Assembly (NCBI GenBank): GCA_001938485.1
Contig: MQRK01186667.1
Span: 3,118-61,294, forward strand
Length of the DNA: 58,177 nt
Direction: 5' to 3'
From: Girardia tigrina
Taxonomy: Eukaryota
A program made the translations under genes and the position numbers. The notes under the pieces are model-generated. The model ran no database searches, was not told where the DNA came from, and was given only the letters and a program-made list of their open reading frames with translations. The first letter of the stretch is position 1. Each line of letters starts with the position of its first letter. This document shows, piece after piece, positions 3,972 to 56,796 of this stretch.

Positions 3972-4019
3972 TATATTCATATTTGAAGAGCTCTTTTATG
4001 ATATTTGAATCAATGTTTT

Positions 4020-15240: not shown

Positions 15241-15671
15241 TAAATCAGTTTCAAGCTTAAAATATTTAATTAAGTATCAAAAAATTTTGCCATTATTATT
15301 CAATAATATCTTGTATAATTAAAAAGAAATAAATAAATCATTCTACTAAAACTAATATTTTTTCGAAGATTGGACATGGAGTTCCTATCTAGAAGAACAG
15401 TGCAGTCTTAAGTAATGGATCATTGTCTTAATATTATTGTTAGTCTTAAATTCTAACTATCTTTCATTTGAATAATATAAAAGCTAAAATTCCTCGTTGT
15501 TTAAAATCTTTCTTAATAAATGTTGTTTTTATTTTCTACATTCCATACTTGGGTTTTTTGTAAATATAATTATTTTTGTTATTTGCTTTCTTTCTTTTGT
15601 TAAATAGTCTGTATTTAGATCGAATCTTGAAAATATTCACTTGAATTTATTAAATACAGTATAAAATAATA

Positions 15672-19204: not shown

Positions 19205-19500
19205 ATGATCTCATGTCCCCTGCCACACATCAAAAGAGGTAAAGCGGTTGATGACAGACGAATGCTTGGTGATTCTGCCATGACCGGACATGAATACAAT
19301 AGAAATGCTATTGAACGTTCTGAAGAACAAGTTGCGTCAGAAAACAAGTACAAACAGATATGAATGAAATACTAAACATCTGTGTGTATGACGATGAGGT
19401 CTCCAGACAATTCACGGAAACTGCGCAAAAATTGGTGACATGAATGCCTGATCGAATAAGGGCTCAGATTAAAGCAAAAGATAGCCATACCACATTCTAA
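19205..19500 (+). mobile_element. Tc1-like transposase C-terminal fragment
   Basis: Reads PCHTSKEVKRLM...ILP*PDMNTIE (SPDxNPIE motif) and KLVT*MPDRIRAQIKAKDSHTTF*. Confidence 0.7.
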
Positions 19501-21300
19501 AGACGCTGTTGCATGCTTTGTGCTGTGTTTTTGTTAATTTATGCAGTTAAATACATGTTGTTTGCTGTAGTAGTCTCATGTGCAATATAGTGGTGAATTT
19601 ATATGGCGTCCAGATTAATATACTCCCTAAAATTAATTTAATTTAGTTTATATATTTAAATATAATTAATTTACTGAATATTTGCAAAATTGGAAAAATT
19701 TATACGTTTAAAAATATCAAATATTTTTTTAACATAATTTGAATGAAATTAAAATATCAGTTTCGATATCACATATGTAAATGAAAGGAAAACTAAAAAG
19801 AGTCATTTTATTCTATTTTATTTCTTTAGTAAATTAAAAAAATTAAGTTTAGTACTTTCATGCAAACTTTTTACTTTTTATAAGCTTCTTCTGTAAAATG
19901 TCTTCTTGTGAAAGTTAAACCTCCGCTCATCAGACAAGGAATCTGAATCAAAACACAAATGTATAAAATTATATACCATGCTTTTCTAGTTAGAAATTTG
20001 CTGCCAGTAATATTTAATTTAGGATTCATGCGTAAACATATGCCATATTTTTTAGTAAATCTGTTTATAATAATTAATATCTTTTTCTAGATTTTGATAA
20101 TTAAAACCACTAGATCATAGTATCTTAGTAATATTAAAAGGAATTAAAAATACATTTACGTTAATAGATTTTTCATGTGCATTAACGTAAATGTTTATTA
20201 AAAAATATTATCAAAAGAAATAATTAAAAACAAGAAAAAAAAATTACAAATATCTAAATGGAAAATATACTGAAATTAATCGGAAATATTTATATATTTT
20301 TAATAAAATATCATTCTTTTTTATTAATAATTGTTGGGATCGTTCATAAAATATAAAATTTTTGAATCTTATGAAATTATTAAATAAACAATTACATTCC
20401 GTAAAATATTGTTATAAATATGTTAAAAAATAGATTTTCAGAAATTTAATATAAAAAATTAATTGAAGTAAGAAATAAAATAAATTTTACGGTAGGGTTA
20501 TTAAAAGATTTATGTAAAGATTTATTATAAAGTAAAAAAAGTTAATTTCAAATTTGATGAAAATATTTATTTGAAATAAAATAAAAGTAATTTAAGTTTG
20601 ATATTCTATTTGCAAAACTAAACTATTTTTTGTAACTTTTAAATCAAAGTAAATTAAAAATGTGGTTATAATTTTTTTTTGGAAAATGTAATTATAATTT
20701 TTATTGGGAATTAAAATTGGAATTAAAAAATAATTGAAAACCATTAAATTGACTTAAATAAAAAAATGCGAATTTAATTTTTTGGAAAATGTAATTGAGA
20801 AACAGGTAAATTTAAATGTACCATAAAATTGAAAAATTAATAAAAGACACAACAAAATTTTTGACAAAATTTTAATTCACTATAATTTTTATTAAAGAAA
20901 ATATAAATTTTTAACTTGTAAAAAAATATACAAACCATATTTTTATTTATAATGGTTGTGTAAAAAGAAAGTAAAAAAGTTCCTCAAAAAATATTTGTTT
21001 AAAAAATTCAAATTGTCATAGAATAATAATAAATTACACTAAAATTTGAATTTGCTGTTTTTTTTTACGTTAAAATACGTTTAAAATAGAAAAATTGCAA
21101 TTTTTGAGATTGGCAGAAATAATAATGAAATTTAATAATATTTTTAAAATGTTTTAAACGTTTTCACAACCGAGCGCTTAAAAAGTTAATGAAATTGAAG
21201 ATTACAAAGATTACTTCTTTGTGGTCGGAGTTACGAAGTATGTAGCTCCTATCGTGGATTTTGTCTATGATTGTATATGGACCTTATTTAAGATCTTTCA

Positions 21301-22005
21301 GTAAAAACCGATAGAAAACGTCGTCAATTTGATATATCGTATTTTCCGAATAAAGTGATCACTTGGCGACAAAAACATGAATTTCAAATCAAAACTCTGC
21401 AAAATGAGCTGATTTACACGAATGTGTCGAAAGCGGAAATCATAAGCAAAGACAATTCGAAAGACGCTTTTCAAATGACGAATATTTTGGAGATTTGTAA
21501 AATTATATTGAAGAAAGGAGAGCTCCAATTGACGGAGAAAAAGTGACAATTTGTGATGGATAATTTAATTAAAGATGTCGCAAAACTTCTGACTAGTGAA
21601 ACGTTGAATCCGAGTACAAAACTATGCTTTCCACCGGGTGTGATAAAGAAAATGATTCACGATTGTCACATCAATTTAAAACCGAATAAATCCGCAAAAC
21701 AACAATCTCTCAACGTTATTCGAATGTTGATAAAGAAATTGAATGTTCCGATCAATGTCGTTCTTTTATCTGTCAACATTACTGCGACAAAAAAAATTTA
21801 TTCAATCAAACGAGAATTATTGAGTTATTGTGAAAATATTTTCTCAGAGGTGCACGATTTAAAGATGGAGGCGATTTTCGAACCGGAAAATTATGATTTA
21901 TTCAAAGAAAATTTTGAAACGAAATGCACAATTGAATTACACGAAAAATGCAACAACATTGGGCTCATTTGTGTCGTGCTTGTGCTAAAAAAATTGAAGC
22001 ACTAG
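21301..22005 (+). pseudogene. SBDS: ribosome maturation factor SBDS/Sdo1, nearly complete, intronless, one in-frame TGA
   Basis: Reads RRQFDISYFPNKVITWR...IYTNVSK.....D...AF......ICK.IL.KGELQLTEKK*QFVMDNLIKDVA......LNP.T...P...I......H...KPNKSAKQQSL.VI. All three SBDS domains are colinear. The TGA at 21544-21546 sits at a conserved Arg position, and no start codon is present in frame. Confidence 0.85.
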
Positions 22006-22059
22006 TCACTACAGATTTTTGTGAACCTGTTTTAAAGACTTTGATAAGTTACAGCTGTC

Positions 22060-23000
22060 TCAGTATTCTTGAATATTTAAAAAATCACCACTTTTTTTCT
22101 TTAAAAATGGAAAAATGATCTTCCAGAATTTGTCTACTATTTCAAAAAAAGTTTGTCTATTATTGAATAACATTAGGTATGAAGAATACCAACATTTAAC
22201 TCCGAGTACCAACAATACTTTGGAGAGTTTTAACCGATATATCAAGGAAGAGGAAAATTTACGTGAACGATTACCTCTCTTGTTTGCTCGTCGTTTTTTT
22301 GAGATGGTTGCCAATTTGTCGAAAGCTTATGAACGAGATATGAAGATATTTGTGACATCTCCTACTATCTCATTAAGTGTTTGGACCAGTCCTTATCAAT
22401 GCACAAAGACTGACAAAGTTTTGATGTCTGAAGATCTGGATACAACAGTCGAATATTTCGTTCCATCTGGAAATATAAACCAACTTGCAAAAAGTGTTAT
22501 TGGCGAAAAAACTTTACACTGTTTGAGCAATTTAAAAAACGTGTTTTTAATGTTTGGAAAATCACATTTCTTAAAGAAAAAGCATGGCAAGATTGAGTAT
22601 GCAACTGTCCAGCATTTTTCAAAATTATATCTACAAGAATGTTGTTGGCATTTCAATTAGAACCGATCTTTGTAAACCGCCTGCTGCTGCTAAAATGTAC
22701 CGATTGGAGAAAATCTGAAGCGTGGCAGACAAATCAATTCTAAAAAGGCTTTAATTTTTTAATAAAGGATAAAACATAATCTTTGTATTTTGATTCATTA
22801 ACTTTGTATTTTTTAATTAAAATGTTGTATTTTGTACTTAGAATTAGGCATTTTTTTATTTATCTTTTTTTATTTTTTTACTTAGCTTTTCATATTATAT
22901 TACATAGTGTTTAATTTTTTTACTTAGCGAAGATAAATTTTTTACTTAGAATTTTTTGAATAAAATACTTAGCTTTTTAATAAAAAATACATAGCGTTTT
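22060..23000 (+). mobile_element. MULE/Mutator-like transposase C-terminal part with SWIM finger and repetitive 3' tail
   Basis: Reads TPSTNNTLESFNRYIKE, then a frameshifted CNCPAFFK.YI(C)K(H)VVG SWIM finger and a VPIG..KRGR...KKAL AT-hook-like tail. TTTTACTTAG repeats follow at 22830-22980. Confidence 0.75.
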
Positions 23001-23141
23001 AATAATTATACACAGTGGTTAAATTTTTCTGTATATATACACGAATATATATATNNNNNNNNNNNNNNNNNNNNNNNNNNNNNNNNNNNNNNNNNNNNNN
23101 NNNNTTATACACAGTGGTTAAATTTTTCTGTATATATACAC

Positions 23142-23184
<43 letters not shown>

Positions 23185-25819
23185 TAAAGATATAAATTAC
23201 AAAAAAATAAATATAATTTAAATTTAAAAAAAATAATTTTTTTAATTTTGATCGTTTTATGAACAAAAAATTATCCGAGGAGTCATTGAAGCAATATTGA
23301 GGTCAGTATGTATCAATTATTTTTTGTTTAGAAATGAATGAAATGACGCGTTATGATTGGTCTACCAACCAGAGTGAACCATGGGCCAGATATTTGAAAT
23401 CATGACTCTTCATTTTATTTGAAATTCTAAGTGAAATTGTTTCAAACATTTAATTGTAAATTTATCGAGCATTAAATTGAAATTTTGTCAAATTCTGATT
23501 GAAATTTGTTGTCGAAACAGTAATTATTTAAAAATTTAATTTAACGTTATTTGCTAAATATTTGAAATTTTGTCAAACATTGGTTTATTAAAAAAAATTT
23601 ATCGAACAGTTATTTTTAAATTTTGTATTTATAATTTTACTAAATCAGATATATAAATAAATACCATTCAATGAGCGCATATCAAATCTCTAAAATAAAA
23701 TATACCTAGCCCGAACACAAATTCTAAGAATAAAAAATTCAATTCTGCCACTCAATCGCTACCACCTTCCAGTCTTCGGACAACTTAAAGATCGGGCGGA
23801 ACATGAAAATTAAAAATTTATATGTTTAAAATATTTTTCACACATTAATAATTAGAATTAATTGAGAAAAATTTGCAAAAATCTTTTAAACATCCAATAA
23901 ATTTAGAAAATTTTATTCATTCTTATCTATATTTCTTTGATTCTTATTTTAATAACATAAAATTTTAATAACTTTTTAAGTATTTTTTGAGCAAAATGAT
24001 ACATATTTTTTCTAGAGTTTTATATTATAGATACCAATCTCCCTCAGCCATACTCTTTAAATCTTTTTTATATGTAGTACAAATCCGTAAATAATGTACA
24101 TATTTATCCTTCATGTAAAAATGAAGAGAAGGTCACTTCAACAAACATCTTTTCCTCTCATTTTTATTGCCTCTGCAAAACAAGATATAATATTATTTTG
24201 CTTGAAAGATGATCTTCAAGACTTCAAATGTTAGTCAATATATTATTACTCCCATTCAAAAAGTTTTAAAGTATATCATCATTCCCAATTGCAGTTCAAA
24301 ATATTATTTTAATAAATTAACTCCAATATTTTTATTATAAAATTTTATGTTAATATTTTTGTTAAAATCCATATTTTTAACAGAATTAATATTAATACGA
24401 GATATTCTAAATTAAAAATCAATTTTCGTATTGTAAAGAATGGGATTTTACTTCCAAAATTCAATGTCTAAGAAAATTTATTTTTTGTCAGTTTATGACA
24501 TTTAATAATTTATTTATTTTAATAAGTAAACCGTTTCTTTACAGTCAAAATATTTTCTGAAAAAATCATATTTATTTAAAAAAACATAATAAAATAAATA
24601 TTAAACATTAAATATATAAAGTTTTTAAATAGAAAAAAAGAAAATAAGAAACTCCAATTTTTAACAGGAAATAAAATTTCGTTATAGTCAATATGTAAAC
24701 GTTTTGTTCAAATAATTTTCTTACATTCATTTTATTATAAAAATACTTTTTTGTTTAAATTATTTGTAATTTTACAACTTATTTTATATTGGAATTAGGT
24801 TTATTTTACAATCACTAAATTTTTAATAATAATGTATTAAAGACATAAGAAGCTGATCCAGGGAGTATTGTTGTATCCTTAAATGATCTGAAATAAACAG
24901 GACCTTATTCGACCTACTCAAAATTCTTATCAGAATAAAATGACATTTTTTATCTTGTTTAACACTTTTTTAATAAATAATTTCCCCGTTTAAAAATAAC
25001 TTTGCTGAGTTAATAATATTAATTAATTTTAATATTTGAAACACCTTCATTAACAAGAGTGAACGTACAAAAATATATAAATATTAAACGGAAATGACAA
25101 AGAAACCAATATAACCTCGTTTTGCGCAGATTCTGAAGAGGAATCCCCATTTGCCTATGATAGACCGGCGACACTATTGTCGTAGTCAAATGCTGATTTG
25201 AATATGTTACAATGGAAGAAGTTACACAACTATGAGACCCCTTTGACTAACCACTCTCAAATTAAGAATTATAAAATTTGATGGAAGAATTAGATCTTTC
25301 TAAAGAAAAGGAAGATGAGAAAGAAGCCCTATAAACGGGTAAAATAACTGCAATTTCTTATTCTTTAGAAAAGTGGACGGAATACATCTGTGAAATCAAT
25401 CAAGCGAATGTTTTAAAAAGCATTACAGCTGCAGTTTGGCCCTAAGTCATGATTCTACAAGAAAGGAAGCAAACATTCAAAGTAAATGAAATTGGATTAT
25501 GTTTTTCAAAAACATGTGATGACAGTAAAATAAAATAAACTTTTGAATATATAACTACAGTGTAGAATATTAAAGTATAATCAAATTTTAATTTCTGCTA
25601 AGAACACAGTACAACATTTATTATGACAACAGTTCTTTAAGATCAAGAATACCAAAAATTGATCTGAGAATTAAGAAAAAAGGTAGTAATTGCATCAGAA
25701 AATTTCTAATTTTTATCGACCAGGAAAGATTTAAAAGAACGAAATTTTTAAATGTGATTACTTTACTCGACAGCACTAACTTAATTAAGTTTAAGAGTTT
25801 GCTGAAAAGTTACATTTTT

Positions 25820-26130
25820 CTATATATACTGTAACGACTCTATGTTTTCTCGAAGTGATTCATTCTTGTTTGAATTCTGATTGATTAGAACATATCTAGG
25901 AACGATTAACATTTGCAAAACAAGTTCATCCTTTTGTTTGTAGTAGCGACTGAATACTGATAATCGAAGGTTACTCCTGGTCAGTTTGTTTATAGAATGT
26001 ATCGTCTCTTTGTCATCGGAATATACTCGTCTCACTTGTCTAATGCAAAAGAAAGCATCATTAGTATACGAGTTGCATTTTTGATATGGATCTCTTTGTG
26101 CTCTTTTTGAATGAATTGATTTTCGTTTCA
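25820..26130 (-). mobile_element. possible gypsy pol fragment (RNaseH-integrase linker)
   Basis: AQRDP...LVLQMLIVP resembles the Q..DP ... QL.VP segment preceding the integrase HHCC. Weak. Confidence 0.35.
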
Positions 26131-26296
26131 GGGTTGATAAAAGTAATAATGATCATGAAGATGGCGATCGAACCATCTTGACATCGTGAAGTTCACTGGT
26201 AAACAATCGAACTTCTAACTTCAGAAAATGTTAGATTATGTATGTCTGTTAGATATTTCATTGATCGATTTATAATGCAATTATATTAATCGTGAC

Positions 26297-27330
26297 TGTG
26301 AGGAAAATTAACTTATTTATTAACATTTACATTAAATTATCATATTGTATATATATATATTAAATTGTAATTTGGATCCAGATTAATTTTATAAACTCCT
26401 GATTTGTTTTAATATTGTGTTTTAGCACAAATTTGAATATTAATAAATTTTGCGATATTTTGTGTGATTATTTTTATAATGGAAAGTACTTACATGGCGA
26501 CGACACCAAGTGCCATAAATAACATGGCGCCTCAAATGTATAATGGAGATGGAGATCTAGAACCGTTTATCACAGATTGTCAGTCATTTTTTGAGGTTTC
26601 ACAAATCAGTGAGACGTTTCAACCATTGGTGGGTAAAGCATTTATACACCGTGATTTGCTTGCCACGTATGAAAACGTGGACAGTAAGATTTTAATTTCG
26701 TTGACAGACTCAGGAAAGCATTCAAAAGACCAACGTCTCTGATTCAAGATCTGCAAGAAATAATCAACTACAGGAAAGGCAAAGATTCAGCGATTATATA
26801 TTGCAATAAAATTGAAAAGATGGTTGACCGAATCCTCAATCATAAATGAACCAAACCAGAATTAATGTAATATTTTTTGAAACATTGTGTGGATGATATA
26901 GATGGGAAAAAACAAATCTATATGGAAGAAGCGAAATCCCAAGAAACAATCAAAACAGTGATCGAAAAAATGGACAATATTAAGAAGGAAGTCCAAGCGG
27001 GAAAAATCGCAAATATCCATCGACCGAAGACATTCGCAAATGTTCTTAAAGAGAGAGCAGCATTCCCAATTCAAACAAATCAACAAAGGAAAATCTCAGA
27101 AACAAGAAATTTCAACAAGCAAATGTCAGTGAGACAAAATTACGATGGAAACAGTCGGAATACAGTGATATGTTATGGGTGCCAAAAAAGTGGTCACGTT
27201 CGCCGAGATTGCCCCAATAATATTAAGATTTGTTATGACTGCAAAGGTGAAGAAGAGAATGTCCCTACTTGAAGTGTTCAGTGTGTAAGTTTCAAGGTCA
27301 TTTGGCTTATTATTACTTCAGAAAAGGTTT
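26297..27330 (+). mobile_element. Ty3/gypsy 5' LTR (26297-26494) + PBS + degenerate gag with CCHC knuckles
   Basis: Runs TGTGAGGAA...CTTACA, then TGGCGACGA (PBS, tRNA-Ser(GCT)-like 3' end). The gag reads PQMYNGDGDLEPFITDC and has knuckles CYGCQKSGHVRRDC, CYDCK.. and CSVCKFQGH, with a frameshift and stops. Confidence 0.85.
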
Positions 27331-27644
27331 TCAAACAACCCAATCGAGCCAAAACAATTGGAATAATAACAGAAGACATCGAATGGTTCAACGATCAGTG
27401 GCCGGGCATGATGACGCAGATGGATCATAAATCGAAGAGTTGAAAACGGATAGATAAAAAGAATAAATGGATTGTCAATTTCTGTAAAAATATCAAGTGT
27501 GTGAATGCAATTGAGTCTAGTGATGAGATTATCAGTAAATTAAAATTTATATCAATCGTCGAATTCCACTTTGTCCAATTGATTAAATGTATATCGTTTC
27601 ACCATTTAAATAATAAAAATCTCCTAGTTAAACTATTAACCTAA

Positions 27645-27762
27645 CTATTTTTGAAAAATTATGATGTAAATAAGGATGGTTTCGTCGATTTTGTTGAATT
27701 CATTTGATACATTGAAACTCATGAAGATTGAATAAAGCAATTAGCTTTGATGATATCAAGGT
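27645..27762 (+). pseudogene. EF-hand fragment of calcium-binding mitochondrial carrier (SCaMC/SLC25A24-like), decayed
   Basis: Reads YDVNKDGFVDFVEFI*YIETHED*IKQLA versus SCaMC [29 protein letters not shown]. There are two in-frame TGA. Confidence 0.6.
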
Positions 27763-28019
27763 AATATTCCTTCGTCAAATATTTTTATAACAAACGAGGA
27801 AACAGAGAAATTAGTTTACTGAGTTGATAAAGACACTGATACCTTAGACAAGATCGTTCACTACTGGCACCAAGAACAGGATCACTTTAACCCTGAGTTC
27901 TGTAAGACAGTTATTCATTTCACTGAACATTGTCTTCGAGAGAGGCACATCTATAAGTTTACCTGAAGCATCTCTACAGATATCCATCAAATAAATAAAA
28001 ATAATTATTGTTTAAAAAA

Positions 28020-29070
28020 TATTCATGTCATTGTCCCACCTCTATTTCTCAAATTTCTTTGTCTCTTTTTATAAAAATAATATCAATACGTCTAAATATT
28101 TTTTTTCAATATAATCAGCTTATTATCTGAAAAAATAATTTCTAGAAATCTGATCTGATATGGTAATCGGCTCTTTTATTCAGCAATAATATTTCTGAAA
28201 GACAACCCAGAAATTAGATTCAAACTATTCAGATATAAATTATTATCAAAATTAGGACCCTTTATGACACTTCTCAAATTTAATGTTTTTTATCCTTTAC
28301 TCGCATCAATTGATATTGATAGTTATTATCTTTTGAAATAATTCCGCCAATTATTTTAGAAAAGAACAATAATATCTGTATTTTATTATTATTTTTATTT
28401 ATTAAACTAAAATTAATCGACAATTAATGTATAGTTTAAAATGTCCTTTTTGTCATATGAAACTTTAATACCATAAAATACTATATATAAGCTTCCCTCA
28501 TATGACTTTTTATAAATACACAATTATTATATATACCACATTATCTTATTCAGAGTCAAATTCTGGTAGGATTATGCTCATTTCCTAACGCTAATTTTAT
28601 ACGTTTTCAGTTTTTATCCCTACTTATCAAGTTCCATAAAATATTGTTTTTATCAAGTAGACATGACGATGCGATCATTAAATTTCTTTAGACTTAACTT
28701 ATGTTGAATGAATCTTGAATATTTCCACACTTATTATATTTTCTGAAAATGGTCTAAAATAGTTTGCAGGACTGATTGAAATCTTTAGTGCGATGTCCAA
28801 ATTTTTCATACTTGAATCTTGTTTTATCATGGTGTTTACAACATCTTTACCATTCAAAGATTGTCACCCAGAGCTTGACTCTAAAGAAAAGTCAAAATGG
28901 TCTAATTACAAATTATAGAACCCCCTTCTCCATGTTCTATCAGAAACTGTACCTTCAGCAAACATTATTAATAAATTACTACATAATTTTGTAGTCTTTC
29001 TGCCTTGTTGAAAGTTCTAAAATTACAGTATCAAAAATGAAATTTGTCGGTACGCATGAGTCCACTATCG
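28020..29070 (-). mobile_element. highly degenerate mariner
   Basis: Reads NFQQG...MFAEGTVSDRTWRRGF...FDFSLESSSG*QS...IKQD (mariner HTH region). Downstream remnants are weak. Confidence 0.55.
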
Positions 29071-29148
29071 TTTCACACAAAAGACTAGCGTTACTGAATT
29101 TATTTTAGTTAATTTGCTGTGTTATATTCGGGCTTGTTAGTCTCGGTG

Positions 29149-29204
29149 GTTTGGTCAATTTGATTGATTAGGTCGATTCGATCGATTTGATCGACTTTAT
29201 CGGT
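29149..29204 (+). repeat. six degenerate 9-bp tandem units (TTGRTCGAT-like)
   Basis: ttggtcaat ttgattgat taggtcgat tcgatcgat ttgatcgac tttatcggt. Confidence 0.6.
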
Positions 29205-29779
29205 TCTCTCTCAAGAATAACAACTCGGACAGACTTTTTGTTGGTTTTTTAAGTTTTGTATTTTTGGTTTTTTAAGTTTATAATTGGATTCATGTAAATT
29301 GACGGTAATGAATAAAAACGATTCAATTGGAGAAAAATATATTTTCAATAAATCTAAATAATTCTACTTTTTTTAAAAAAAACTCTAAAACTAAAATTCT
29401 ACAAATTTAAACAAAGTATTTTTAATAAAAGTTGAATGTATAATATACAATAAAAATTTAATAATAAAAAATTACAAAAATTAATAAAAATCTATAAGAT
29501 AAGCTCGACACAACAATAAGAATTAATATATTCAAAAAGACAGAATAAAGAAAAACAGTTTTGTTTTTAATGACCAAAGATTCAAAAAATTCGTCCTTAG
29601 AGTTTGATTATTTAAAATCATAAATTATAGAACTTATAAAAAAATAACTGAATGAAGGCTAAGATTCATGTTGTGCAAAGGTATAGATTTTTCTAAACAA
29701 AATTTAGATGTATTCGTTTAATGTATTGATTCTAAAAAATAATTATAACAATAAATAAATAAATTTCGGTTGTCAATTT

Positions 29780-30400
29780 TGCTTGTTTACTTGTAGATAC
29801 AATCTGCAAGTATCAATTTATGGGAAATATTTTTCTTACATCAGAGGGATTTCTATGTACTTTCGCTAACCTACTTATACAAATACACATATATCTGTGT
29901 TAACAGAATTTTGTAAAACATACTACAATAAAAAATTATAGATATACTGATAAAAATAAAATATTGAGTTCAGTGTACGCTATTTTTGCGAAATATAATT
30001 CTGTTTCTATCGTGAATTTACTTTTAGAAAGGTTCTATTATGAATTCATATCTGAAAATAAATTTGTTTCCTTGACATTCTTGTCACTAGGATGAATCGA
30101 TGTCAAACCGAATGATATGGAAAGACAACAGAGACCGGTATCTAAAAAACACAACACAGCTTTTGTAAGGGAAATATAAAGGGTTAGGAACCGCAAATTA
30201 CTGTTTAAATATTCTTAGAAGACTCTTGAAAGAAGAGTTATGCACAAAAGCACTTGTTAAGAAAGAATAAAAATAAGAAAACGTTGAAAAACAAAAACAA
30301 ATAATTAAAATACCCTTACATTCCAAGCAATTAACAAGAGTATCTGCCAGATTATTGATACGAACAAAGTAGTTGTGAAAAAAAATTCTGAATGTTGTAA
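29780..30400 (+). mobile_element. Penelope-like RT fragment, degenerate
   Basis: Reads FLDILVTRMNRCQTE*YGKTTETG (PLE thumb motif FLD..V.R.....T..YRK.T.TG), plus upstream TFANL and YRY remnants. Confidence 0.65.
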
Positions 30401-30859
30401 GTTTGTTGCTTGTATGATTGGGGACTCTCCTACTCAAATTGGATTGATATGTTATTGATTAATTATTTAAATCTAAATGAGATTAATTTTTAAATACTAA
30501 TTAATTAAAAAGTTTTATAATTAAAATTTTGAATTTCTTTTAGTAAAATGATTTATACTTGTAAAAATAGAGATTTGAATGTGTAGACAAATCTCTATTT
30601 TTACTAGGAAATAAAAATTGTCCAAAAATGCAAAATTAGCCTAACTCGAAATATATTAAGTAATCGTGTTAGATTAATTTAATGTTAATAGAAACGAAAT
30701 AACTAATATCAAAAAAAATAATAATAAACAAGATAACACTTTTAATTAAAAATAAAGCAAATTACGTACAACGGTAATTACCATCATAATTTAAAAGTCC
30801 AAATTAATTTTTATCGATTTTCGATTTAGGTTAATATTAATAATAATAATATTAATAAT

Positions 30860-31394
30860 AATCGGCGCAATCCGACAGATTGTCTTTGTCGTCTTCTTGG
30901 TCGATCAATTGTTAAATGTTATTGGGAATCCTCAACGGAAGACCATTTAGTATTTTCTTATATTGTGGAAATTTGTGAAAAATCATATCATCAGAATTGC
31001 TTTTCACTGATAGTTGTAATGAGCTTTTGAGACATCTCGACAGTATTATAACGCTTTTCTTCATATAATCACTAATCTGAGTTGCGTTTAATGCTTTTAT
31101 TTATGAATTCTTTCGGTCTTTGCATTACAATTAATAAACACGACTGTTGTAGTTAAAAATTGTGGTAAAATAAATAAATACACAATACAATCTTCTTTCT
31201 TTTTTTAAAAGGAATGATAAAATAAAAATAATAAAACAATTAACCTACAAGCACGTACATGAATTATAATACAGATACAAAAAAATGACCGCACAACAAC
31301 AAAAAACATGCACATTCCAAATAAGTAAAGGAAAAGACCTACACAGACCAAAAAAACAACAAACACCATCCCTGTACAAAGATGAGGTATCACA
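30860..31394 (-). repeat. dispersed repeat family B, copy 2 (LTR-like)
   Basis: Begins TGTGATACCTCA and is colinear with 9531-10330. A possible TSD ACACT (31395-31399 / 30736-30740) would extend it to 30741. Confidence 0.55.
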
Positions 31395-32396
31395 ACACTT
31401 ATTAAATTAATATAATTTAAAAAATAATCTTTATTTTAAAATTTTTATCCAATAAAATTTTGAAAAATTAAAAGTTAGTATTATTTTCATCTGATTAATT
31501 AAATCAAAGATATATATATATATATATATATATCAATAAAATAAAAATATAAACCAAAGTATTAAATGTTTTATAGGAGATCAGTAAGAAATAATTTATT
31601 TAGTTTCAAGTTATTTTTCCTAGATAATAAATTAACAAAATTTGCTAAAAGAGGCTGTCCCCTGAAAATAACAAAAATATAGAAAGAACTATTAATTAAA
31701 TAATTGAATTGTTTTTACAACAAAATTTTGGACTCGTTTTCGAAATTGTGTTTATTATTGTTTTTTTGATTTTTTTTCTTGTCAAAAGAAAATGTTTTTC
31801 TTTGAATGTCGAATTTTTATTTTTAACACGATACACTTTACACTTATAATATTTTTTTTCGTTTAAGGATAACTTTATTAAAAATATTACATTTTTAAAA
31901 AAAATATGTTGATATTTTACATTTTAAAATTTAGTTATCCGTTTTTTTTCTAATTATTAGATTCGAATATACCTTAAAAGGTATTTTTGTTAATGAAAAA
32001 CCCTGCATTTTAAAGTAATTTGATAAATCAACCGCCTTGTTGGTTAAAAACTAAAACTTCAATTTTAAATCCGGTTATCTATGCAACTAAACTTTGTATT
32101 GCGTGAAACACACCAAAGACTGATATCTGATCAATGTGACATTTCAGATTTATCACCCTGTTAAGTGTGTTTATTGAAATCTATCACTTTGCGGATACAT
32201 TCCATGACTTTTGTAACTATTTATGTTATGTTTTAAATATAGGTTTTCATTCTAATATTGAAATTCATTTTATACACAAAATATATAATATGTTACATAT
32301 AGTATATATATATAATGATGAATGCAATATGTTGACATGATGAATGCATAATAATAACTACATGGTTATGGTTACTTTTTGAACTGTTGATTAATA

Positions 32397-33192
32397 TTAG
32401 AGTGAACCAAAAGTTTTCGTATTTTTTATTAAAATTTTAAACATAATTTTACAAAAAATAAAAAGCATTTTAGTTTCAAAGTAAAGACCATTTGAATCTA
32501 TAGCTTGAACCCATCTATGGGCAAGTTGTGCGATCCCGCTGCAGTACCAATCCTTGTTCTTAGAAGCGAAGAACTGGTGACACCCATGTTTGTTTGGCTT
32601 TTTATCGCAAGTTACAATTCGACGAATGAAACGGTCATCGCGAATTTTCAAGCAATTTTCGACAAGTTTCGACATCGTCTATTGACCTTGCCAAGAGCGT
32701 GAAGGTGTCGTACAATGGATGTTTGAGGAATATCGAGTTCGGCCGACAATCTGCGAGTACTTATTGACGGATTTGTCTCGATGGCTGAACGAATTGCTCC
32801 GGAATCTACGGTGATAGGTCGGCCTTAACGTGCATTGTCTCCGAGGTCAATGTCGCCTTTGTTGAACCTTTGGAACCAATTTTGTGCAGTACGATTTGAG
32901 ACCACATTATCACCTTCAACTTCGCATATCTTCTTTGTTGCTGCAGTTGCGTTTAAGCCGTGTTTCCAGTAATGACGTAAAAGAACACGAGTTAAAAAAT
33001 TTTCCATGATTTTTCTAAAAGACCATAAAAATTATATTAACGACATATTAGAAGTTTTAATATATATTGTGATAGAGCAGTTCAAGAGCTTTAAAAACAT
33101 ATAATTAATGTATATAAAATATCTTTATTTGGTAATAAGAAACAATTGAACAAAAAGATGTAGAAAATACGAAGACTTTTGGTTCACCCTAT
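32397..33192 (-). mobile_element. internally deleted mariner (796 bp)
   Basis: TIRs TTAGAGTGAACCAAAAG / CTTTTGGTTCACCCTAT with TA flanks. The N-terminus MENFLTRVLLRHYWK...NWFQRF and IVTCD is joined directly to the C-terminal FFASK..WY..GI..L..RW. Confidence 0.9.
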
Positions 33193-33289
33193 TATTATAT
33201 TATATTTAAGGTTTATAAGGTAATTTGATGACTGATATATTTTACGATGATCTTTAAGGTAATGGCGACGGTTGACAAGGTTTTTGAAG

Positions 33290-33730
33290 TTATTTGATTG
33301 GTTGTTTAGGTGATTTCAAATTTTGCTAAGTGATCAGAAGCACTGCCAAGGTATAAGGAACCAATCAGAAGCGTTGTCAGGGCAATCGGAATCGTTGCTA
33401 AGGTGATCAGAACCAAAGTTATGGAAATCGGAACCGTTGCTTTGGAACCGGAAAGCAATCAGAAGCGTTTCTAAGTTGATCGAGACCGTTGCTATGGAAA
33501 TAGAAACCGTTGATAGGTGAATCAGAACCGTTGCTATGGAACCGGGAACCTTGCAGAAGCTTCTCTGCCTAGGCCGATGTTATCGCCACCGTTGCTACGG
33601 ATCCGGAAACCAATTAAAAGCGTTGCAAAGGAAATCGCGACCGTTACCATGGTGACTACGACCGTTGCCATACTAAACGCGACTGTTGCTATGGTACCCG
33701 TTGTTGTGGTAACCGTTTTCATGGTAACGG
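33290..33730. promoter_or_regulatory. 21-bp-period minisatellite made of RFX X-box-like palindromes with CCAAT boxes
   Basis: About 15 14-mers such as GTTACCATGGTGAC (33643), GTTGCTATGGAAAT (33488), GTTGCTAAGGTGAT (33394) and GTTTTCATGGTAAC (33715). CCAATCAG lies at 33361, GCAATCAG at 33455 and CCAATT at 33610. Regulatory function is inferred, not shown. Confidence 0.6.
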
Positions 33731-33859
33731 AGACCCCATCGGGGGTTTTTCTCTTACTAGAGTTGCAATGTCTCTTGTAAAGGAAGTAATTTCAAAAATT
33801 TATAATAATTGAAATTTTTTTGTGTGTGGTTTCTCTACGAATGTTTGTATATTATTATA

Positions 33860-36800
33860 GTCGTATGTTAGGTTGTTGCTATATTGTGCGTTTTTGTTTT
33901 TTTCTATAATTGTAGGTTTTTTTGTTATGCCAGTTAGTTTTTCTAATTGTGATTTCTTGTTTTTTTTCGTTTGGTCGTATTCTGAGTGCTAATAGTGTCT
34001 CATTAAGATTGTTGAGCCAGTTTTTGTCGTCTCCTTTTGTTCTGATTGTTTCTTTTAAAGTTGTGTGAAATCTTTCTATCTTGCCATTGGATTGGGGATT
34101 GTATGGCGTTGTTCGTTGTTTGCTTATATTGTATTTCTTACACAATGTTTTAAACAGTTCAGATTCAAATTTTGAACCCTGGTCGCTGATTATGTGTTTT
34201 GGTGGACCAAATCTAGTTATCCATTCGTTTTCAATTTTATTAGCTACTGTTTCAGCGGATATATTTTTTAATGGAATTGCTTCTATCCAGTGCGTTTTAC
34301 GATCTATTGGTGTTAGTATGTATTTATAGTTTTTGTTTGGGGTTAACGGTCCTACCAAGTCTTTGTAGATCGTTTCCATTTTATCACTGTCTGGATAATC
34401 TATGAATTCTAGTCTTGTTTTTATTGTTATTTTGTTTAGATTACATGTTATACATTTGTTTATAAAGTTTTTTGTCTTTTCTCATGTTTGACCATATTGC
34501 TTGAGTGTGTATTATTTGGTGAGTGGTTTTGTGTCCGTAATGGCCCATATTATGTATTCTTATAATACATTCCTCTTGTAAATCTTTTGATATGAGAGGT
34601 CTCAAATTGCCGTTGATACTATTATCATAGTATATTCCTTCCATTTGTATAATCTTTATGGATTTATGTTTTTTTGTTTCTTTTGTGATGTCTTCTTGTT
34701 TATTTCTGAGTTTTTTTATTGATATTTTTGGTTTGAATATTATCTGGTTGATGTTAGCTCTTGATAGGTAGTCTGCAACTATGTTCGACTTTCCAGATAT
34801 ATATAATATTTCACATTGGAATTGTGATATATAATTATGTATAGTGTAAAATATCTATTTTCTATCAAGTCTTTAAAGTGTTTGATGCTGTTGTGTATAG
34901 CTAAAAGTTCTCGGTCATATGTTGAGTATTTGATTTCTGGTGTTTTTAATTTTTGTGAATAGAAACATAATGGTCTTTGTTTGTTGTCGATCTTTTGTTC
35001 TAACACTGCTCAGATTTCTATGTTTGAAGCGTCGGTTGTTAGAATTAGTTCACTGTTTTCTTGTAGCATTTCTAGTTCTGTTATTTTATTTATTTCTTCT
35101 TTTACTTTTTTTGAATTGTTTTTCAAGTAGATCCTTTCATTTAATTGTTTCTAATTTAGTTTTATTTTTTATTTCTTTACTGAAGTCAGCTAGTAGTTCA
35201 AAACAATGAAGGATGCATTGGTGATAAAAGTTTATCATCCTTATAAATCTTCTGATTTCTCTAACGTTTTTCGGTTTTTCAAGTTTCGTTATGTTGAATA
35301 TCTTTTCCGGAATCGGTTCTATTTGTTTTTGACTAATTAGGTAGCCTAGGAATGATATTTTTTCTTTTAGGAATTCGCATTTTTTTGTGTTTATTTTTAG
35401 TCCGTTTTGTCTAATACTTGGAAAACGTTTTCAATATCGCATAAGTTCTCTTTTTCGTTCTTGCTTCCTATTAGTATGTCATCTAAGTATATGACGGTGT
35501 TTCTGGTGTTCATGAATATATTATTCATTGTGCGTTGAAAAGTGGCAGCTGTGTTTTTCAATCCGAAAGGCATCCCGTGTAGTCCGAATGGAGTTGTTAT
35601 GCGGTTTTCTTAATATCTTCTTTGTTCATTGGAATTTGTTGATAGGCTTTTTCAAGATATACTTTGCTGAATATTTTGGCCTGGTTGAGTCTTGTGGTTA
35701 TGTCTTTGATGAGTGGAAGCGGGTATGAATCATTAATGGTGATAGCGTTAAGTTGCCTATAATCACCGCAGCATCTCCATTCACCATTTGCTTTTTTTTA
35801 TCATCATGAGTGCTGAAGACCAGTTTGATTTCGCTGGAGTTATGATTTTTTTTCCAGTAATTCTTTGAAGATTTTCCTTGCTGCCTCGAACTTTTCTGGT
35901 GTGAGTTGTCTTGTTTTAGCATGTATTGTCAGTCCGTTTGTGATAATTGCATGTTCCACTTTCAGTTTTGTTTCTATCGTGTTTATTTTCTGTGATATAT
36001 CTGGGTATTTTGCCAGTATTTCTTTAAGTTTTGGATTTCTTGTTGTTTTTTTCTTCTTTTCCTTCGTTTTTGATTTGTGAGTAATTGTTTTGTTTAATTA
36101 TGTGGTCATTAAGTGTAAGTATTTTGATATATTTTGTCTTTTGGATATATTTTCCTGAATTATGAAATGTTCTTGATTTGAATATTTTATTAATTTTGTT
36201 GTATGGTATTGTTGTGTTTCTTCTGTATTTTAGGTTGGTTGTGTTTGTTTTGTTGTGTATATTTGTTGAGTTTGTTTTTTGGAATAGATTTTTTGTGTTT
36301 TGTTTGTTGTGTATATATGTTGTGCTTGTTTTGTTGTATAGGTTTGTTGTGTTTGATTTGTATATTTTAATGTTTTTAAAATGGATTTCTCTTTTGTCTA
36401 GTATGTTTATTGTGCCTATTCTGTTTGTTTTTATGCTGTGTAAATTGATGTCTGTTTCGTTTTCTAGATTATTATTATTTCGTTCTTGTTTCCTATTAGT
36501 ATATTGTATCGTGAATGTCGTTTGGATTTCACCTATCCTTGGTGCTGAGGATGGTGACTGGTTTGGTTTAAATTATGAAAGTAGCATTGACTTTCACAGC
36601 GGTATGCTTGATCCCCAAATTTTTCGTGGTACCAGCAAAGATTATTTTTATTGTCAATTGGTCTAATGTTCGAATTCCATTTTTTATTATTCATTTTTTG
36701 CTTGTGATCCCCTCTGTCTGTAATAATGTTGAAGTTGCTTTTTCTGTTTTCTAAATTTTTTAACTGAGTGTTGAATTTTTCAAGTTGTTTGTTTATTTCT

Positions 36801-37177
36801 GTTATTATATTTTGGTTTTCGTTGATTTCATTATTGCTTTTGTTATGGATGTGGTTTATTTCGAGGTTTGTTTCTGCATAAAATCTGTCTGCGAGTGCTG
36901 TTAGTTCTTCTGCAGAATCTGTTATTGTTGTTGTTGCTAATTGAATTCTAATGTTGTCTGGTAATGATCTTAAAAAGAATGTTTTCGTGAATTCTGAATT
37001 TTCCTCTATTTGATTGAGTTTTTGTTTTAGGGATTTGTATAATTCCGAGGGTTTACGGTCACTTAAATGAGTGTCTTCTATGCAATCGTTTAGTATGTTT
37101 ATTTTTGTATTTGTGAATTTTTCGCAGAGTGCTTTCTTAAATATTTCCAGGGGATTTTTAATTGTTAATTTTCTCAT
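33860..37177 (-). mobile_element. Ty3/gypsy CsRn1-clade retrotransposon internal region (gag, RT, RNaseH, integrase), degenerate
   Basis: Gag 36533-37177 has the CHCC motif C-X2-H-X9-C-X3-C (CWYHEKFGDQAYRCESQC). RT reads GEWRCCGDYRQLN and YLDD (about 35480), RNaseH TDAS...YSTYDRELLAI, and integrase H..GH.G, DLVGPL, SDQGS.FES, PQSNGKIERFH. Confidence 0.92.
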
Positions 37178-37455
37178 AACAATAATTCAAACGAAAATCG
37201 TCTCAATATTCTGAAAACTTATTTCGACACTTTCATTATAATATATCAATTGTTATGAATTTAAACATTTTTTATTTTTATACGAGTATTTGATTTTTAT
37301 TGATTTTCCTATAAAAATCATTTTTAATTTTTAAACGTTTTGTATTTATTTCATTTTAAAAATTTTCAAATTTAAAAAAAATGATAAGTTAATTAGGAGA
37401 AGTGTAACTTTAAACTAACTCATCGTAATTATACATTGATGTTTGAATTAACGTG

Positions 37456-37873
37456 TGATTATGTATTTAAACAAATTAAGAATGTTAATGTTTCCGACAA
37501 TTTGAATTGTCCCTGTGACAATTCCTAAGAATCATTTCGTAGTTAAACATTTTTCTATATTAATAAAATAAATTTATTTTCAAACTACTTACAAATTTTA
37601 ATTATTGATTTGGTTATATTATATTATATTTTCATTAAAAAATTTATGAATTTTAAATATTTTTAATTGCAATTTTAAATTGCAAATAAATTATAATTCA
37701 AATAAATTATTGATCAAATTTAAATTATTAATTATTATGTTGTAATAAATAGTGTACGATCAATCTTAATATTATAAATATTTTAAATATCCATTATCAT
37801 CTGCGTAAAAAATACAAATCCAAAACAACGTACTGAACAGAACATAAAAAACAATATAAAAACAATCCTCGCA
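37456..37873 (-). mobile_element. solo LTR (TGTGAGG family), diverged, 418 bp
   Basis: Reverse complement starts TGCGAGGATTG. It has the CAGATG box and the family core CAATTTGAATTGTCC..GACAAT. TSD is ACGTG/AAGTG. Confidence 0.65.
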
Positions 37874-39702
37874 AAGTGAATCAAATATATGTGATGTGAA
37901 TTTTTTACAAAAACTATGCCTTATGCAAAGAAAATCAAATTTATAAACAGATTAGCTTGTAGTCCACAAATCGCTTTCGATTTATTTGACACGACACTTT
38001 GAACTTTTTAGAGATTATCAAGAATCATTAAAAATTTGAAAAAATAGTCTATAATGAAATTAAGATTAGAAGAAGAATATCGTCGTCATCGTCGAGTCAA
38101 AACCTCGTAAGTGACAATTTTTCACATTTTCATTTTAATACTTGAAACGGTATAGAAAAACAATGTTTTCATGGTGTAAAAGTTTCATACGAGCAGGCTG
38201 AGACAATGGTATCAAAATTCATTACTTTTAAAACCTCCTATGTTATGTCTTTACTTACTAGTCTTTAGTTTTTATTGATTTCTGACAAATCTTTATATTT
38301 GTACTTACGAGGTATTGACTCGACGGCGACCATATGTAATTTAATCTTATTTAATCCTTATATTTATATATTAAATTTATATTAAATTTATACATGATAC
38401 TAATTACAATATGTATAGCATAATGAAACAATACATAAGTAAACGAAATTTAAAAATATATTGAAAATTGGTTTGTAAATTTATTGGTTTTTTATTTTTG
38501 TTGAGTGGTTCATTGAGAGCATAGCTTATATGTATTTTATAGTGATATGTAATATTTTCTAAAACCTTTTTGATAATTTATATTAATAAAATAATAGACG
38601 TATAAAATATTTTAAAATAATTAAATAAATAACAATACTTAATAAAGATTAATTAACTTTCTATAAAGGTTTACTAGGGTACAAAATGTACATCTTTCGA
38701 ATCAAAGGGTCCAGTATAAAAAGAGTTTCCAAAATCTTAAAAGCCCTTTGTGAAAAGTTCATTTAATTGTTAGGATATTAATTTTGAAAATTTAGAAGTA
38801 CTGATTTTGCAATTTAAAATAAAAAAATTATTTACATTTTGCATTTGATTTTGTTGAATCCAGTTTTGAAATTCTTGAAAAATAAATTAAAGTACAAAAT
38901 CGACTTTTTTGAAAACAGTCTAAGTTGGAAATAAGCGTTTATTTTGGAAAATATGTAAAAAATATATTTATAAATTAAAAGCAAGTAAATTTAGAATTTA
39001 ATTTATCCGTTGATCATTGAACCATTTCTTCTACAAATGAGGCATAAATGTATCCTTGCATTGCTCTGGTGAAGACTCAAAAAATTAGACTTGATTTGAA
39101 TTTTATGGTTTCATTCTTGCAGAAAACTTCTTAGCCCAATTCACTTAAATTTGTTGATTTTCAAATGAACCTGATTGAAGATATAGTTTGTATCATAAAT
39201 GATGGTAGCAATGATATTATATACCTTGGAAAACAAGTGTTATGTATTCGGATATTGTATCGAGGACCATGTTTTATGTATTTTTGTCTATTTTAGTCTT
39301 GATATCTTTTGTTTTTCTTTTGTTAAAAAATTTTTTGTTTAAGCCTTGACAAAAATCCTAGATTTATATTTTATACAAATCGTACAAATAGTTCAGTTTC
39401 AGACTAATTTATTTAAAGTGACTTTTGGGGCAGAGTAGTGTAAAGAAAATAACAAGTTTCGAGATAACAATCCCATTGTACGCAGCATGTATTGAAACTA
39501 ACATATTATATTGGATTATATGAAAATCAAAATATTTTAATAATAAATCATTGGATTAAAAAGAATTTATTTCATTTTTTTTAAAAATTAAGCAAAAATA
39601 CAGTAACAGTGATCAATCCTTTACTAGTAAATTCAACAAAATCAAAAGTGGGTCAGAGACCGACTAAACCTAAATAATGAAAATAATGATTATACTCTAA
39701 TA

Positions 39703-40754
39703 TTAGGTTGGTCGAAAAATAATGGCGGTTTTTGAGCTTTATACTTTTTTTATCTACTTTGATATGTATATAAGTTTAAATGCATTAGTGTTAGATAGTA
39801 TTTGAAATCTTATGCTTAGTTGTATATTCCTATAGCCATTATTAACATATTGCTGTTATATTTTAGAATATTTACGGTGCTAAATTAATAATGGAAAAAA
39901 TTAAAATTCGAGCAATTTTCTTGTACGAATTTAAACTGGNNNNNNNNNNNNNNNNNNNNNNNNNNNNNNNNNNNNNNNNNNNNNNNNNNNNNNNNNNNNN
40001 NNNNNNNNNNNNNNNNNNNNNNNNNNNNNNNNNNNNNNNNNNNNNNNNNNNNNNNNNNNNNNNNNNNNNNNNNNNNNNNNNNNNNNNNNNNNNNNNNNNN
40101 NNNNNNNNNNNNNNNNNNNNNNNNNNNNNNNNNNNNNNNNNNNNNNNNNNNNNNNNNNNNNNNNNNNNNNNNNNNNNNNNNNNNNNNNNNNNNNNNNNNN
40201 NNNNNNNNNNNNNNNNNNNNNNNNNNNNNNNNNNNNNNNNNNNNNNNNNNNNNNNNNNNNNNNNNNNNNNNNNNNNNNNNNNNNNNNNNNNNNNNNNNNN
40301 NNNNNNNNNNNNNNNNNNNNNNNNNNNNNNNNNNNNNNNNNTTGTCCGGGATTGGTCAATCGAAAAAGTCCCATCCTTCTTCATGATAACGCTAGACCTC
40401 ATATTTCAAAAGTGACTCTTCAAAAGCTTAATGAGTTTGGCTATGAAATCCTGCTTCATCCACCATATTCACCAGACCTCTTGCCAACGGACTTCTACTT
40501 TTTCAGGCATTTGTACAACTTCCTACGTGAAAAAATTTTCAAAAATCAAAATGATGCTCAAAATGCCTTCCAAGAATTCGTCGCTTCGAGAACCGATGCA
40601 TTTTANGCTGATGGAATAAAACAACTTGTTTCTCGTTGGCAAAAATGTATTGATGCCAACGGTTCATACTTTGATTAATAAACTTTTGTTTCTGTGAATT
40701 TGCACGTCTTTGAAGTTTGTGTCCCAAACCGCCATTATTTTTCGACCAATCTAA
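39703..40754 (+). mobile_element. mariner element (cecropia-type), middle in assembly gap
   Basis: TIRs TTAGGTTGGTCGAAAAATAATGGCGG with TA flanks. Reads MEKIKIRAIFLYEFKL...HDNARPH...YSPDLLPTD...RWQKCIDANGSYFD. Confidence 0.93.
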
Positions 40755-41319
40755 TATATGAATAATAAATTAGGTCAGATACCAAATTTTTCAAAACCGA
40801 TGAATTTATTGGCCACTTTTAGTCGCAAGCCGTCCGTTTTGACAAAACTATGTGCTGATTATCAGAACTTTGCTTCAGCTGAAATCAGCACTATATTCGA
40901 ATATTTTAAGAAGAGAGTAACCGTAGTTACTTTTTAAATATTTTATAATTTGAATTTTGTACTTTATGATTTCATATACATGGATTTTATTAAATCCTTT
41001 GTAGTGGGATTTAAATTGAATTACTATTATGTATCTAAATAGTCAGAAAAAATATAATCTTATTACAAATTATACTAATAAGTATTAAATCAATCCACAT
41101 CAAGTCTTGATGTTTATCACGAATATGTATTCCTACGTTCTCTACTGGGAAAAAAAGAAATAAGCTGTCAAAATTTTCTTATTTTAAAAATAATAGGCCT
41201 TAAATTATACAAATCTGTTGTTATATGTGTTTAACATATATTATAGTGCATTCAAAATCCAATTAATTCACTTAGAATAAAACAATGTAACTTGCATTTT
41301 GATAATTGTTCTAAAGTTG

Positions 41320-41980: not shown

Positions 41981-43526
41981 GTATGGAACATTATTTTTCC
42001 TGACACTGTATCATCAGTTGCTGTGGTCAAATGTACCTTAGATAGTAATTAAATGCTATGAAAATTGGCAAATAAGATTTGCTTTAAGAATAAACAAAGG
42101 TTTGATATAGTGTAAATTGGGTAAGTGTGCACATAACTACATGTTGCTATGTGGTTTTCGGTTACCGTATCAACCGTTAATCAAGCCATTAAAATCACAT
42201 GATTTGTTTTTAATCGAAACAGGGGGATGGTACTTCTGGCGGAATGGGATACTTTACGAATTGGTAGCTATTATTTTTGTAATTCTAAACTCATATCTGA
42301 CCCTCTGTGCATTGACAGCTATCAATTGTCGTTAGAGAAAACGAAATGTTTACTATACCGTCCCGTACTTTAACGAGTAACTGAGACATATGATAGAGAT
42401 TACAATTGACAGGTTACCAAAATCTAATCTTTTAGATGAAACATCCATCAAACTTTTTTTTAAAAATAATTTGAAAAATTGGCGTTCAAAATAATAATTT
42501 TAAAAGCCATAATTTTTTGAAATTAAAATAAAAAATAAATAAAATCTTTACCTAAAATATTTTACAAATAATAATAAATAATATGTTCATTTAAAATATT
42601 TTTTTTCACAAAAAGATATTCGTCAATTGATTAAACTTAACATTTAATAAAATTAACTTGTACAAGCAGTAAATGTCAGTCAACAACGTCTACACTCTTT
42701 CAACACTTTTTTTATCATTTTATATTTTATTTTATATTAATTCCGTTCGATGTCTTTCAATTTTAATAAGAAATTCATTTAAGATTAAATAATATATTTT
42801 AATGATAATTAAATATTTGTCAACTTATACCTCTTAATGATTATTAATTGAAAACAAATAATTATTATTATTTACAATATATTATTTTGAAAATTGTCAA
42901 CCCATTTAAGATATATTTTTTTAATTTCAATGCGACACAAAAAATTATTTATTAATTGTAAATTATTTGTTATTCAAATGAATGTCACTTATTCAAATAA
43001 AATATTATGGAAAATATTTGTCTTTACCTAAATAAAGATTGAAAAGGTTTCAAAAAATTCTAATGGAAACCTGTTGACATAGTTTAACTAAAATATTATT
43101 ATATTTATCAAAAGTCCTGAACTTATATTGTCATATTTTAATTTCGGTATACAAAATTTTTTTAATTTTTTAGTATTCATTTTGTACTCATAAATATATA
43201 AATATGATGTTAGGAGAAGAATTAAAAAATTCTCCTAATTGTCTTTCAAAAAGCAAATTCCTATTATAAAAGAAAAAGAAATACATCAGCTTAGAAACTC
43301 CGAATGGGTCTTTCAGGTCCCTATTGAGATTGTTTTCCCAAAATTCGAATGAAACTGCCCGTAAAAAAAGAGAGTTTCTGAATCGCGTGCAAGCAGCCAC
43401 AAAACAACGGCCAACATTCAGTTAGAGTAATTTTGTCATCGAATTGGTTAATAGAACATGGAATACAAAAATGATAAACCCCACTTCCGCAACATCGCCT
43501 TTGCGCTCACTCTGCTAACTGTATGA

Positions 43527-56749: not shown

Positions 56750-56796
<47 letters not shown>

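Follow-up and report, generated by a model that had tools for sequence, protein, structure and literature searches.

Whether a tandem series of RFX-like sites in the DNA of Girardia tigrina is a regulatory platform or a by-product of transposon evolution, and which mobile element carries it, is the question raised by the locus considered here. The stretch analyzed, 58,177 nucleotides in length and referred to below as the window, is AT-rich animal DNA full of transposon remnants; the GC content of the array is 46%, compared with about 28% for the window. The initial annotation had described the array as a helically phased set of RFX and CCAAT boxes, borne by a transposable element and acting as a candidate ciliary or germline enhancer cassette. 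On the evidence of its sequence, the array is a real but ordinary-looking transposon-internal minisatellite whose RFX-like unit is modestly significant. The coordinates of the features discussed are collected in Table 1.

Table 1. Features of the array and of its surroundings in the window
Feature	Position	Strand	Remarks
Open reading frame of a GPCR	17290-18252	-	5 matches; best named match Schmidtea mediterranea GCR070, 41% identity
Mariner-type remnant	32392-33197	-	37-nt TIRs (32392-32428, 33161-33197), 89% complementary; abuts array
Left continuation of array	33208-33297	+	Strongly decayed; slots at 33211, 33250, and 33271
Third CCAAT core	33295-33303	-	Core at 33297; opposite orientation; absent from the initial annotation
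Core minisatellite	33298-33728	+	21-bp units with RFX-like half-site; 94-bp repeat; last part two 15-bp steps
CCAAT box with good flanks	33359-33370	+	Exact core at 33361
Equivalent CCAAT slot	33455	+	Core broken (GCAAT)
Equivalent CCAAT slot	33610	+	Core intact, weak 3' flank
Only exact published X-box in window	33643-33656	+	6 of 7 palindromic pairs
GC-rich hairpin, candidate Helitron-type terminator	33733-33746	+	5-bp perfect stem, 4-nt loop, 10 nt before CTAG
CTAG, candidate Helitron 3' terminus	33757-33760	+	Agrees with CTRR; at end of integrase similarity
Broken gypsy-type LTR retrotransposon body	33758-37186	-	Gag-like part, RT, RNase H, integrase; stops and frameshifts

Layout of the repeat and likeness to the RFX motif

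Inspection of the locus revealed a decayed 21-bp minisatellite with a 94-bp higher-order unit, extending from about 33210 to 33728. Each of the 15 starts listed in the initial annotation carries a 14-mer beginning with GTT, and all of them fall in one repeat register. The higher-order unit of about 94 bp was also confirmed: it is composed of steps of 31 + 21 + 21 + 21 bp, starts at 33333, 33427, and 33582, and shows 60-69% identity between units over 94 bp, and a shortened unit of 61 bp begins at 33521. The description of most spacings as 21 bp was accurate for 7 of the 14, the others being 31, 31, 42, 61, 72, 15, and 15 bp. The array reaches farther to the left than had been proposed, with decayed slots as far as 33211. 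Profile scores at the three slots of this left continuation were, from left to right, 5.8, 7.1, and 11.3, and scores above 5 were found at 0.07% of the positions outside the array. Further decayed slots lie at 33321, 33342, and 33415. Tandem Repeats Finder detected only the best part of the array (33485-33554, period 21), and neither profile nor repeat comparison revealed a second copy in the 58-kb window.

The quality of the boxes was assessed by scoring consensus patterns instead of PWMs. Against the pattern given in the initial annotation, GTTNCYATGGHRAY, 12 of the 15 14-bp boxes matched with at most two mismatches and 6 with at most one, while only 2 were exact; against the full palindrome, GTTRCCATGGYAAC, none was exact and 3 had at most two mismatches. 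The boxes had been called near-palindromes, a term that does not suit most of them: the median palindromy was 3 of 7 pairs (range 1-6), and most boxes consist of one good half-site. With the published X-box pattern, GTNRCC N0-3 RGYAAC (PMC10530576), one box of the 15 was exact and 4 were within one mismatch, whereas those at 33467 and 33622 had three mismatches. Sites within one mismatch of this pattern numbered 4 in the array compared with 6 in the other 57.7 kb.

The monomer site GTTRCY was found 10 times in the array, compared with an expectation of 0.34 per 445 bp. Because the copies within a tandem array cannot be counted as independent, significance was tested on the repeat unit. A majority unit was derived from 14 register-defined slots and differs from the X-box by one mismatch. 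This proximity was equalled by 37 of 4000 shuffles, and the observed counts were reached in 1-3 of 600 column permutations. The comparison with shuffled units proposed in the initial annotation, performed here with a consensus and not a PWM, came out in favor of a resemblance beyond shuffles. The RFX-like character of the unit thus appears real but modest, for a motif that was picked post hoc. Agreement with the X-box rises toward the hairpin to the right of the array (rho = -0.64, P = 0.002, 21 slots); on the 15 previously listed sites alone the gradient was not significant (P = 0.09).

Outside the array, an isolated X-box-like site with one mismatch (42161-42174) lies 18 bp from a second RFX half-site, the pair occupying 42143-42174. 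It was the only strong profile match outside the array (score 22.8; next 11.7) and is without a hairpin-CTAG nearby. It may represent either a promoter element of the host or a piece of the family to which the array belongs.

CCAAT slots, helical phase, and conservation

The 31-bp steps had been attributed to inserts of CCGGAAA plus (C/G)CAAT. CCAAT was found to be exact at 33361 and 33610, but the slot at 33455 reads GCAAT, and the array has CCGGAA at just two places, 33448 and 33603. In a fourth slot, at 33549, the motif is gone. The three CCAAT cores of the array compare with 1.04 expected (P = 0.087), which does not establish an enrichment, and 2 of the 7 well-flanked CCAAT boxes of the window lie inside the array, as judged by their flank pattern. 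Comparison of the 10-bp insert with the 3' part of the unit gave matches at 6, 7, 3, and 4 of 10 positions, and owing to this resemblance the CCAAT slot may have arisen as a side effect of partial duplication.

The slot-C boxes at 33394, 33488, and 33643 all have perfect half-sites and, on the minus strand, lie ahead of the ATTGG slot, with 47 bp separating the start of the box from the end of ATTGG (motif ends as defined here). For human MHC class II X-Y modules, in which RFX is the upstream partner, a length of 47-49 bp is reported (PMC4381081). Both the order and the distance would place the array within the range of these modules, although the definition of motif ends used in that paper may differ. 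With boxes every 21 bp and a 5-bp window, the chance of such geometry is about 1 in 4; one of the three CCAAT slots in the 47-bp geometry is broken, and no CRE/X2 half-site (TGACG or CGTCA) was found in 33190-33780. The half-site-to-Y distance in HLA-DRA is 25 nt, equal to that of the array, and CIITA is a vertebrate cofactor. The MHC-II-like geometry, if meaningful, would suggest RFX5/7-type rather than ciliary factors, and neither cilia nor sperm, because the NF-Y partner in the cited papers is RFX5: cooperation of RFX with NF-Y is described there for RFX5 and not for the ciliogenic RFX factors (PMC4889920, PMC2278383, PMC7866136). For planarians, rfx7 and nf-ya genes are named in PMC9522251.

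Helical phasing was central to the enhancer proposal. At 10.4 bp per turn, 13 of the 15 sites lie within about 55 degrees, and the phase coherence R was 0.81; at helical periods of 10.5 and 10.6 bp, R was 0.54 and 0.16, respectively. The 15-bp steps, which are situated among the best boxes, are 4.5 bp out of phase. The phasing that is present rests on a few inherited length events, namely the unit length, the 10-bp insert, a 33-bp loss, a 1-bp loss, and the 15-bp steps. With so few independent events, and with an outcome that varies with the helical period assumed, phasing was not upheld as a designed feature.

Majority agreement was 0.74 for box columns and 0.71 for spacer columns (P = 0.40; 14 register-defined units of one copy). 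Within the array, box and spacer thus do not differ significantly in conservation, an outcome that the initial annotation had itself named as speaking against its interpretation. Differences between equivalent slots amounted to 34/114 in the 5' half-site, 41/114 in the 3' half, 17/38 in the center, and 51/133 in the spacers, which suggests at most a slight trend toward lower divergence of the 5' half-site than of the spacers.

A hairpin-CTAG end meets a broken integrase

To the right of the array a hairpin is followed by CTAG, and the integrase of the neighboring gypsy-type element breaks at that CTAG. Canonical (HLE1) Helitrons end in CTRR, with a hairpin about 10-12 nt ahead of the 3' end (PMC11417382), and the 3' end of Helraiser has a 19-bp palindrome 11 nt from the terminus (PMC4778049). 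The arrangement of hairpin, 10 nt, and CTRR was found at this site alone on both strands of the 58-kb window. Controls yielded 1 match in 10 shuffled windows and 1 in 1000 local shuffles, with scan criteria that were fixed after the site had been seen. The folding z-score of the hairpin was about -2, and 7 of 200 shuffles folded as well; terminal signals of Helitrons are known to yield many false positives (PMC11417382). The base after CTAG is A, not the T usual for a Helitron, a departure from insertion between A and T; in Helraiser, 46 of 1751 targets were non-AT (PMC4778049). The CTAG at 33757-33760 doubles as integrase codons and may be gypsy-derived. No Helitron 5' end, expected to read TC and to continue TA-rich, was found in 20000-33300, where neither of 2 candidates follows an A and the mariner interrupts the left edge. 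The search for a TIR partner of the right end in 15000-33300 returned only 12 AT-rich matches (10 of 12 positions), which were taken as chance, and Rfam gave no match in 32000-34200 at E values up to 0.5.

A PIF1/UvrD-like helicase C-terminal fragment was observed at 56780-57133 (plus strand), beside an assembly gap. It had no Pfam match, and its Atlas look-alikes at 0.93-0.95 include UvrD_C_2 clusters. The fragment is possibly part of an autonomous Helitron-like element and would be compatible with Helitrons in the source genome.

Relatives of the gypsy element with 85 and 65% identity were found, and similarity of the integrase to the more distant of these (P0007) extends to 33809. For the next integrase block, the highest-scoring 13-residue match is at 33796-33758, the place expected for it; its score was equalled by 0.47% of background positions, which makes it weak on its own. 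Beyond 33758 no integrase frame continues (scores of -2.8 to -23.7 compared with 17.9 for P0007), and profiles from 55 of 70 homologues (41 of 70 for tails) found no remainder of the integrase tail above background in 25000-33760. The break is followed by a purine run of 10 nt and then by C rather than TG, and the minus strand is 49% A in the integrase but 26% A in the array. No primer-binding site and no polypurine tract with TG was found for the element, and no second LTR in 36900-41000, the pair test being weak given that the gypsy 5' part is lost; for the same reason an LTR origin of the array is only weakened by these results. A 27-bp (9-codon) tandem repeat was observed at 36167-36382, in the portion of the gypsy body that separates the gag-like region from RT and in which no protease similarity was detected.

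To the left, the sequence beyond the mariner (32300-32392) contains a TA-rich stretch, a duplicated 12-mer, and a weak unit-like word at 32331 (score 2.2); that it is the 5' part of the array-bearing element is possible but unsupported. The GPCR open reading frame is 15.0 kb from the array, as had been noted previously, and an SBDS-like broken open reading frame, a gag remnant, and the mariner intervene; no link between array and GPCR was found within the window. The SBDS-like frame (about 21190-22005, plus strand) is intronless, has an in-frame stop just before 21547, and contains Pfam SBDS domain II. Its relatives are 86-94% identical, one of them of 248 amino acids, and it looks like a divergent retrocopy or pseudogene. 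More mariner/Tc1-type remnants and gypsy fragments were seen at 2671-3983, 5368-6296, 11661-12654, 39693-40764, 26437-27272, and 51751-53731. Near-identical sequences flank N gaps at 23006-23153 and 55030-55390 (49 bp direct, 100%; 130 bp inverted, 95%) and are likely assembly artefacts.

Origin of the array and comparison with known systems

That the array is borne by a transposable element, as the initial annotation held, is supported: it is non-coding, lies in transposon debris, and is very probably inside a mobile element. The reading preferred here, to which a probability of roughly 0.55 is assigned, is that the array is the 3'-subterminal internal minisatellite of a non-autonomous HLE1 Helitron that lies on the plus strand and ends at 33733-33760. 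One RFX-like site would have been amplified as a 21-mer, and a partial duplication of 10 bp from the 3' half of the unit, a plausible but unproven event, would have given rise to the CCAAT slot along with the 31-bp step. The 94-mer would then have been amplified again and would have decayed, fastest away from the terminus. At the junction, a deletion joining the CTAG of the element to a CTAG inside the integrase would account for both the A after CTAG and the absent gypsy 3' end. The mariner would have landed later at the left edge of the array. The 10 good half-sites can probably bind RFX monomers, and the Helitron family may at one time have relied on them to express itself; the present copy looks like unselected debris and not like a maintained enhancer.

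The position of the array directly 3' of the integrase can also be explained if the gypsy element itself supplied it: the array would then be U3 enhancer sequence from that element's 3' LTR, joined to the integrase through an internal deletion, and would drive transcription on the minus strand toward the CCAAT core at 33297 and a word resembling TATA close to 33215. The minus-strand order of box and then ATTGG is the sense direction of gypsy, a purine run does follow the integrase break, and repeated CCAAT modules have been described in LTRs (PMC4889920). Such an origin is nevertheless unlikely: the integrase is cut before its end and its tail was not recovered in 25000-33760, the purine run leads into C, neither second LTR (36900-41000) nor primer-binding site was found (the LTR pair search having little power with the gypsy 5' part lost), and the hairpin-CTAG at the junction would be left as coincidence. 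A selected, helically phased RFX/NF-Y platform driving the element or neighboring genes in ciliated or germ cells would fit the resemblance of the unit to the X-box beyond shuffles, the alignment of most sites at 10.4 bp per turn, the perfect half-sites and MHC-II-like distance of the slot-C boxes, the mention of planarian rfx7 and nf-ya genes (PMC9522251), and the slightly fewer differences in 5' half-sites than in spacers. It is made rather improbable by the lack of a significant difference in conservation between box and spacer, the broken and lost CCAAT slots, the frequency with which a box falls in the 5-bp window by chance, the lack of CRE/X2 half-sites, the collapse of phase coherence at slightly longer helical periods, and the placement of the GPCR gene 15 kb off behind other transposon remnants.

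Boxes without excess conservation would equally be expected of a neutral minisatellite, in any carrier, whose seed was like an RFX motif by chance; the P value of about 0.01 applies to one post hoc motif, and many factor motifs could have been matched. In prokaryotic genomes, 11 unrelated loci share the 21-bp-spaced pattern, implying that such repeats arise without RFX. None of these loci resembles the end of the array-bearing element, 6 of the 11 had no blastn match to the array at E values up to 1, and the best prokaryotic match was 53 nt at 77%; a bacterial promoter scan (3 sites compared with 1.8 expected) was uninformative. Chance seeding is a doubtful account of four boxes within one mismatch of the X-box, one of them exact, set against the 6 in the rest of the window, and of an array holding 2 of 7 well-flanked CCAAT boxes. 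A 7-residue protein repeat as the source of the 21-bp period, to which several frames open for 37-87 codons might point, is largely refuted: 3 of the 14 spacings (31, 61, and 31 bp) cannot be divided by three, nor can the 94-bp unit, stops occur in every frame, and the 87-residue frame (one of six frames) had no match among 1.84 billion representatives.

Among known systems, Caenorhabditis Helitrons contain dense clusters of heat-shock elements, mostly of 1-10 sites and some of more than 100 (PMC6927752), and the likeness lies in a dense tandem cluster of one factor's site inside a Helitron. They are documented by HSF-1 ChIP and nearby-gene effects over many copies, whereas the array is RFX-like and described as one copy from sequence alone. 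With HLE1 elements (Helraiser/Helibat, Heli1Xen1; PMC11417382, PMC4778049, PMC12001565) the array element shares the 3' hairpin about 10 nt before CTAG, and with non-autonomous ones also the lack of coding capacity and an internal minisatellite, which in Heli2Xen has a 166-bp unit (PMC12001565). It differs from HLE1 elements in that no 5' TC was found, the 3' flank is A and not T, and the stem is shorter than the 19-bp palindrome of Helraiser. The MHC class II X-Y module (RFX5 with NF-Y; PMC4381081) also has one strong half-site, and its arrangement of an RFX site followed by an inverted CCAAT would correspond to the 47-bp geometry of the array by the motif ends used here, whereas the array lacks X2/CRE, has a second RFX-like site in the spacer, and is tandemly repeated. 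Ciliary X-box promoters (RFX/DAF-19; PMC10530576) have in common with it GTTRCY, here 10 times, and the exact palindromic X-box, here once. Ciliary X-boxes are, however, enriched near transcription starts (PMC10530576), in contrast to the tandem, mostly half-site boxes of the array in transposon debris, and no ciliary gene was identified near the array in the window.

Factor motifs are generally abundant in transposons (PMC8896005), and in Xenopus a single Helitron locus is described as having RFX2 ChIP signal over its 5' part (PMC12001565). RFX does not occur in the main text of PMC5494522 or PMC8896005, and no RFX-site array in a Helitron was found in the open-access literature. The RFX identity of a Helitron-borne site may be new, and the repeat family of the array may already be catalogued in Repbase or Dfam.

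Transposon-borne arrays of factor sites are a known route to rewired gene networks, and Helitrons are established carriers. By analogy, a flatworm Helitron family might bear tandem MHC-II-like RFX/NF-Y modules beside its 3' terminus, bound by RFX5/7-type factors, and scatter RFX-responsive enhancers, a scenario that we regard as quite unlikely; circularization of the element, in which its 3' end is joined to its 5' end, would bring the modules to a position upstream of its transposase promoter. If this were true, the partnership of RFX with NF-Y would be far older than vertebrate MHC-II, and the family would parallel, for RFX, the Helitrons with heat-shock elements in Caenorhabditis. As one decayed copy, the array has its value as a lead. 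For Schmidtea species, both ATAC and ChIP data are available (PMC11410931), and if the family proved abundant and bound, it would provide a ready test of mobile DNA feeding RFX networks in planarians.
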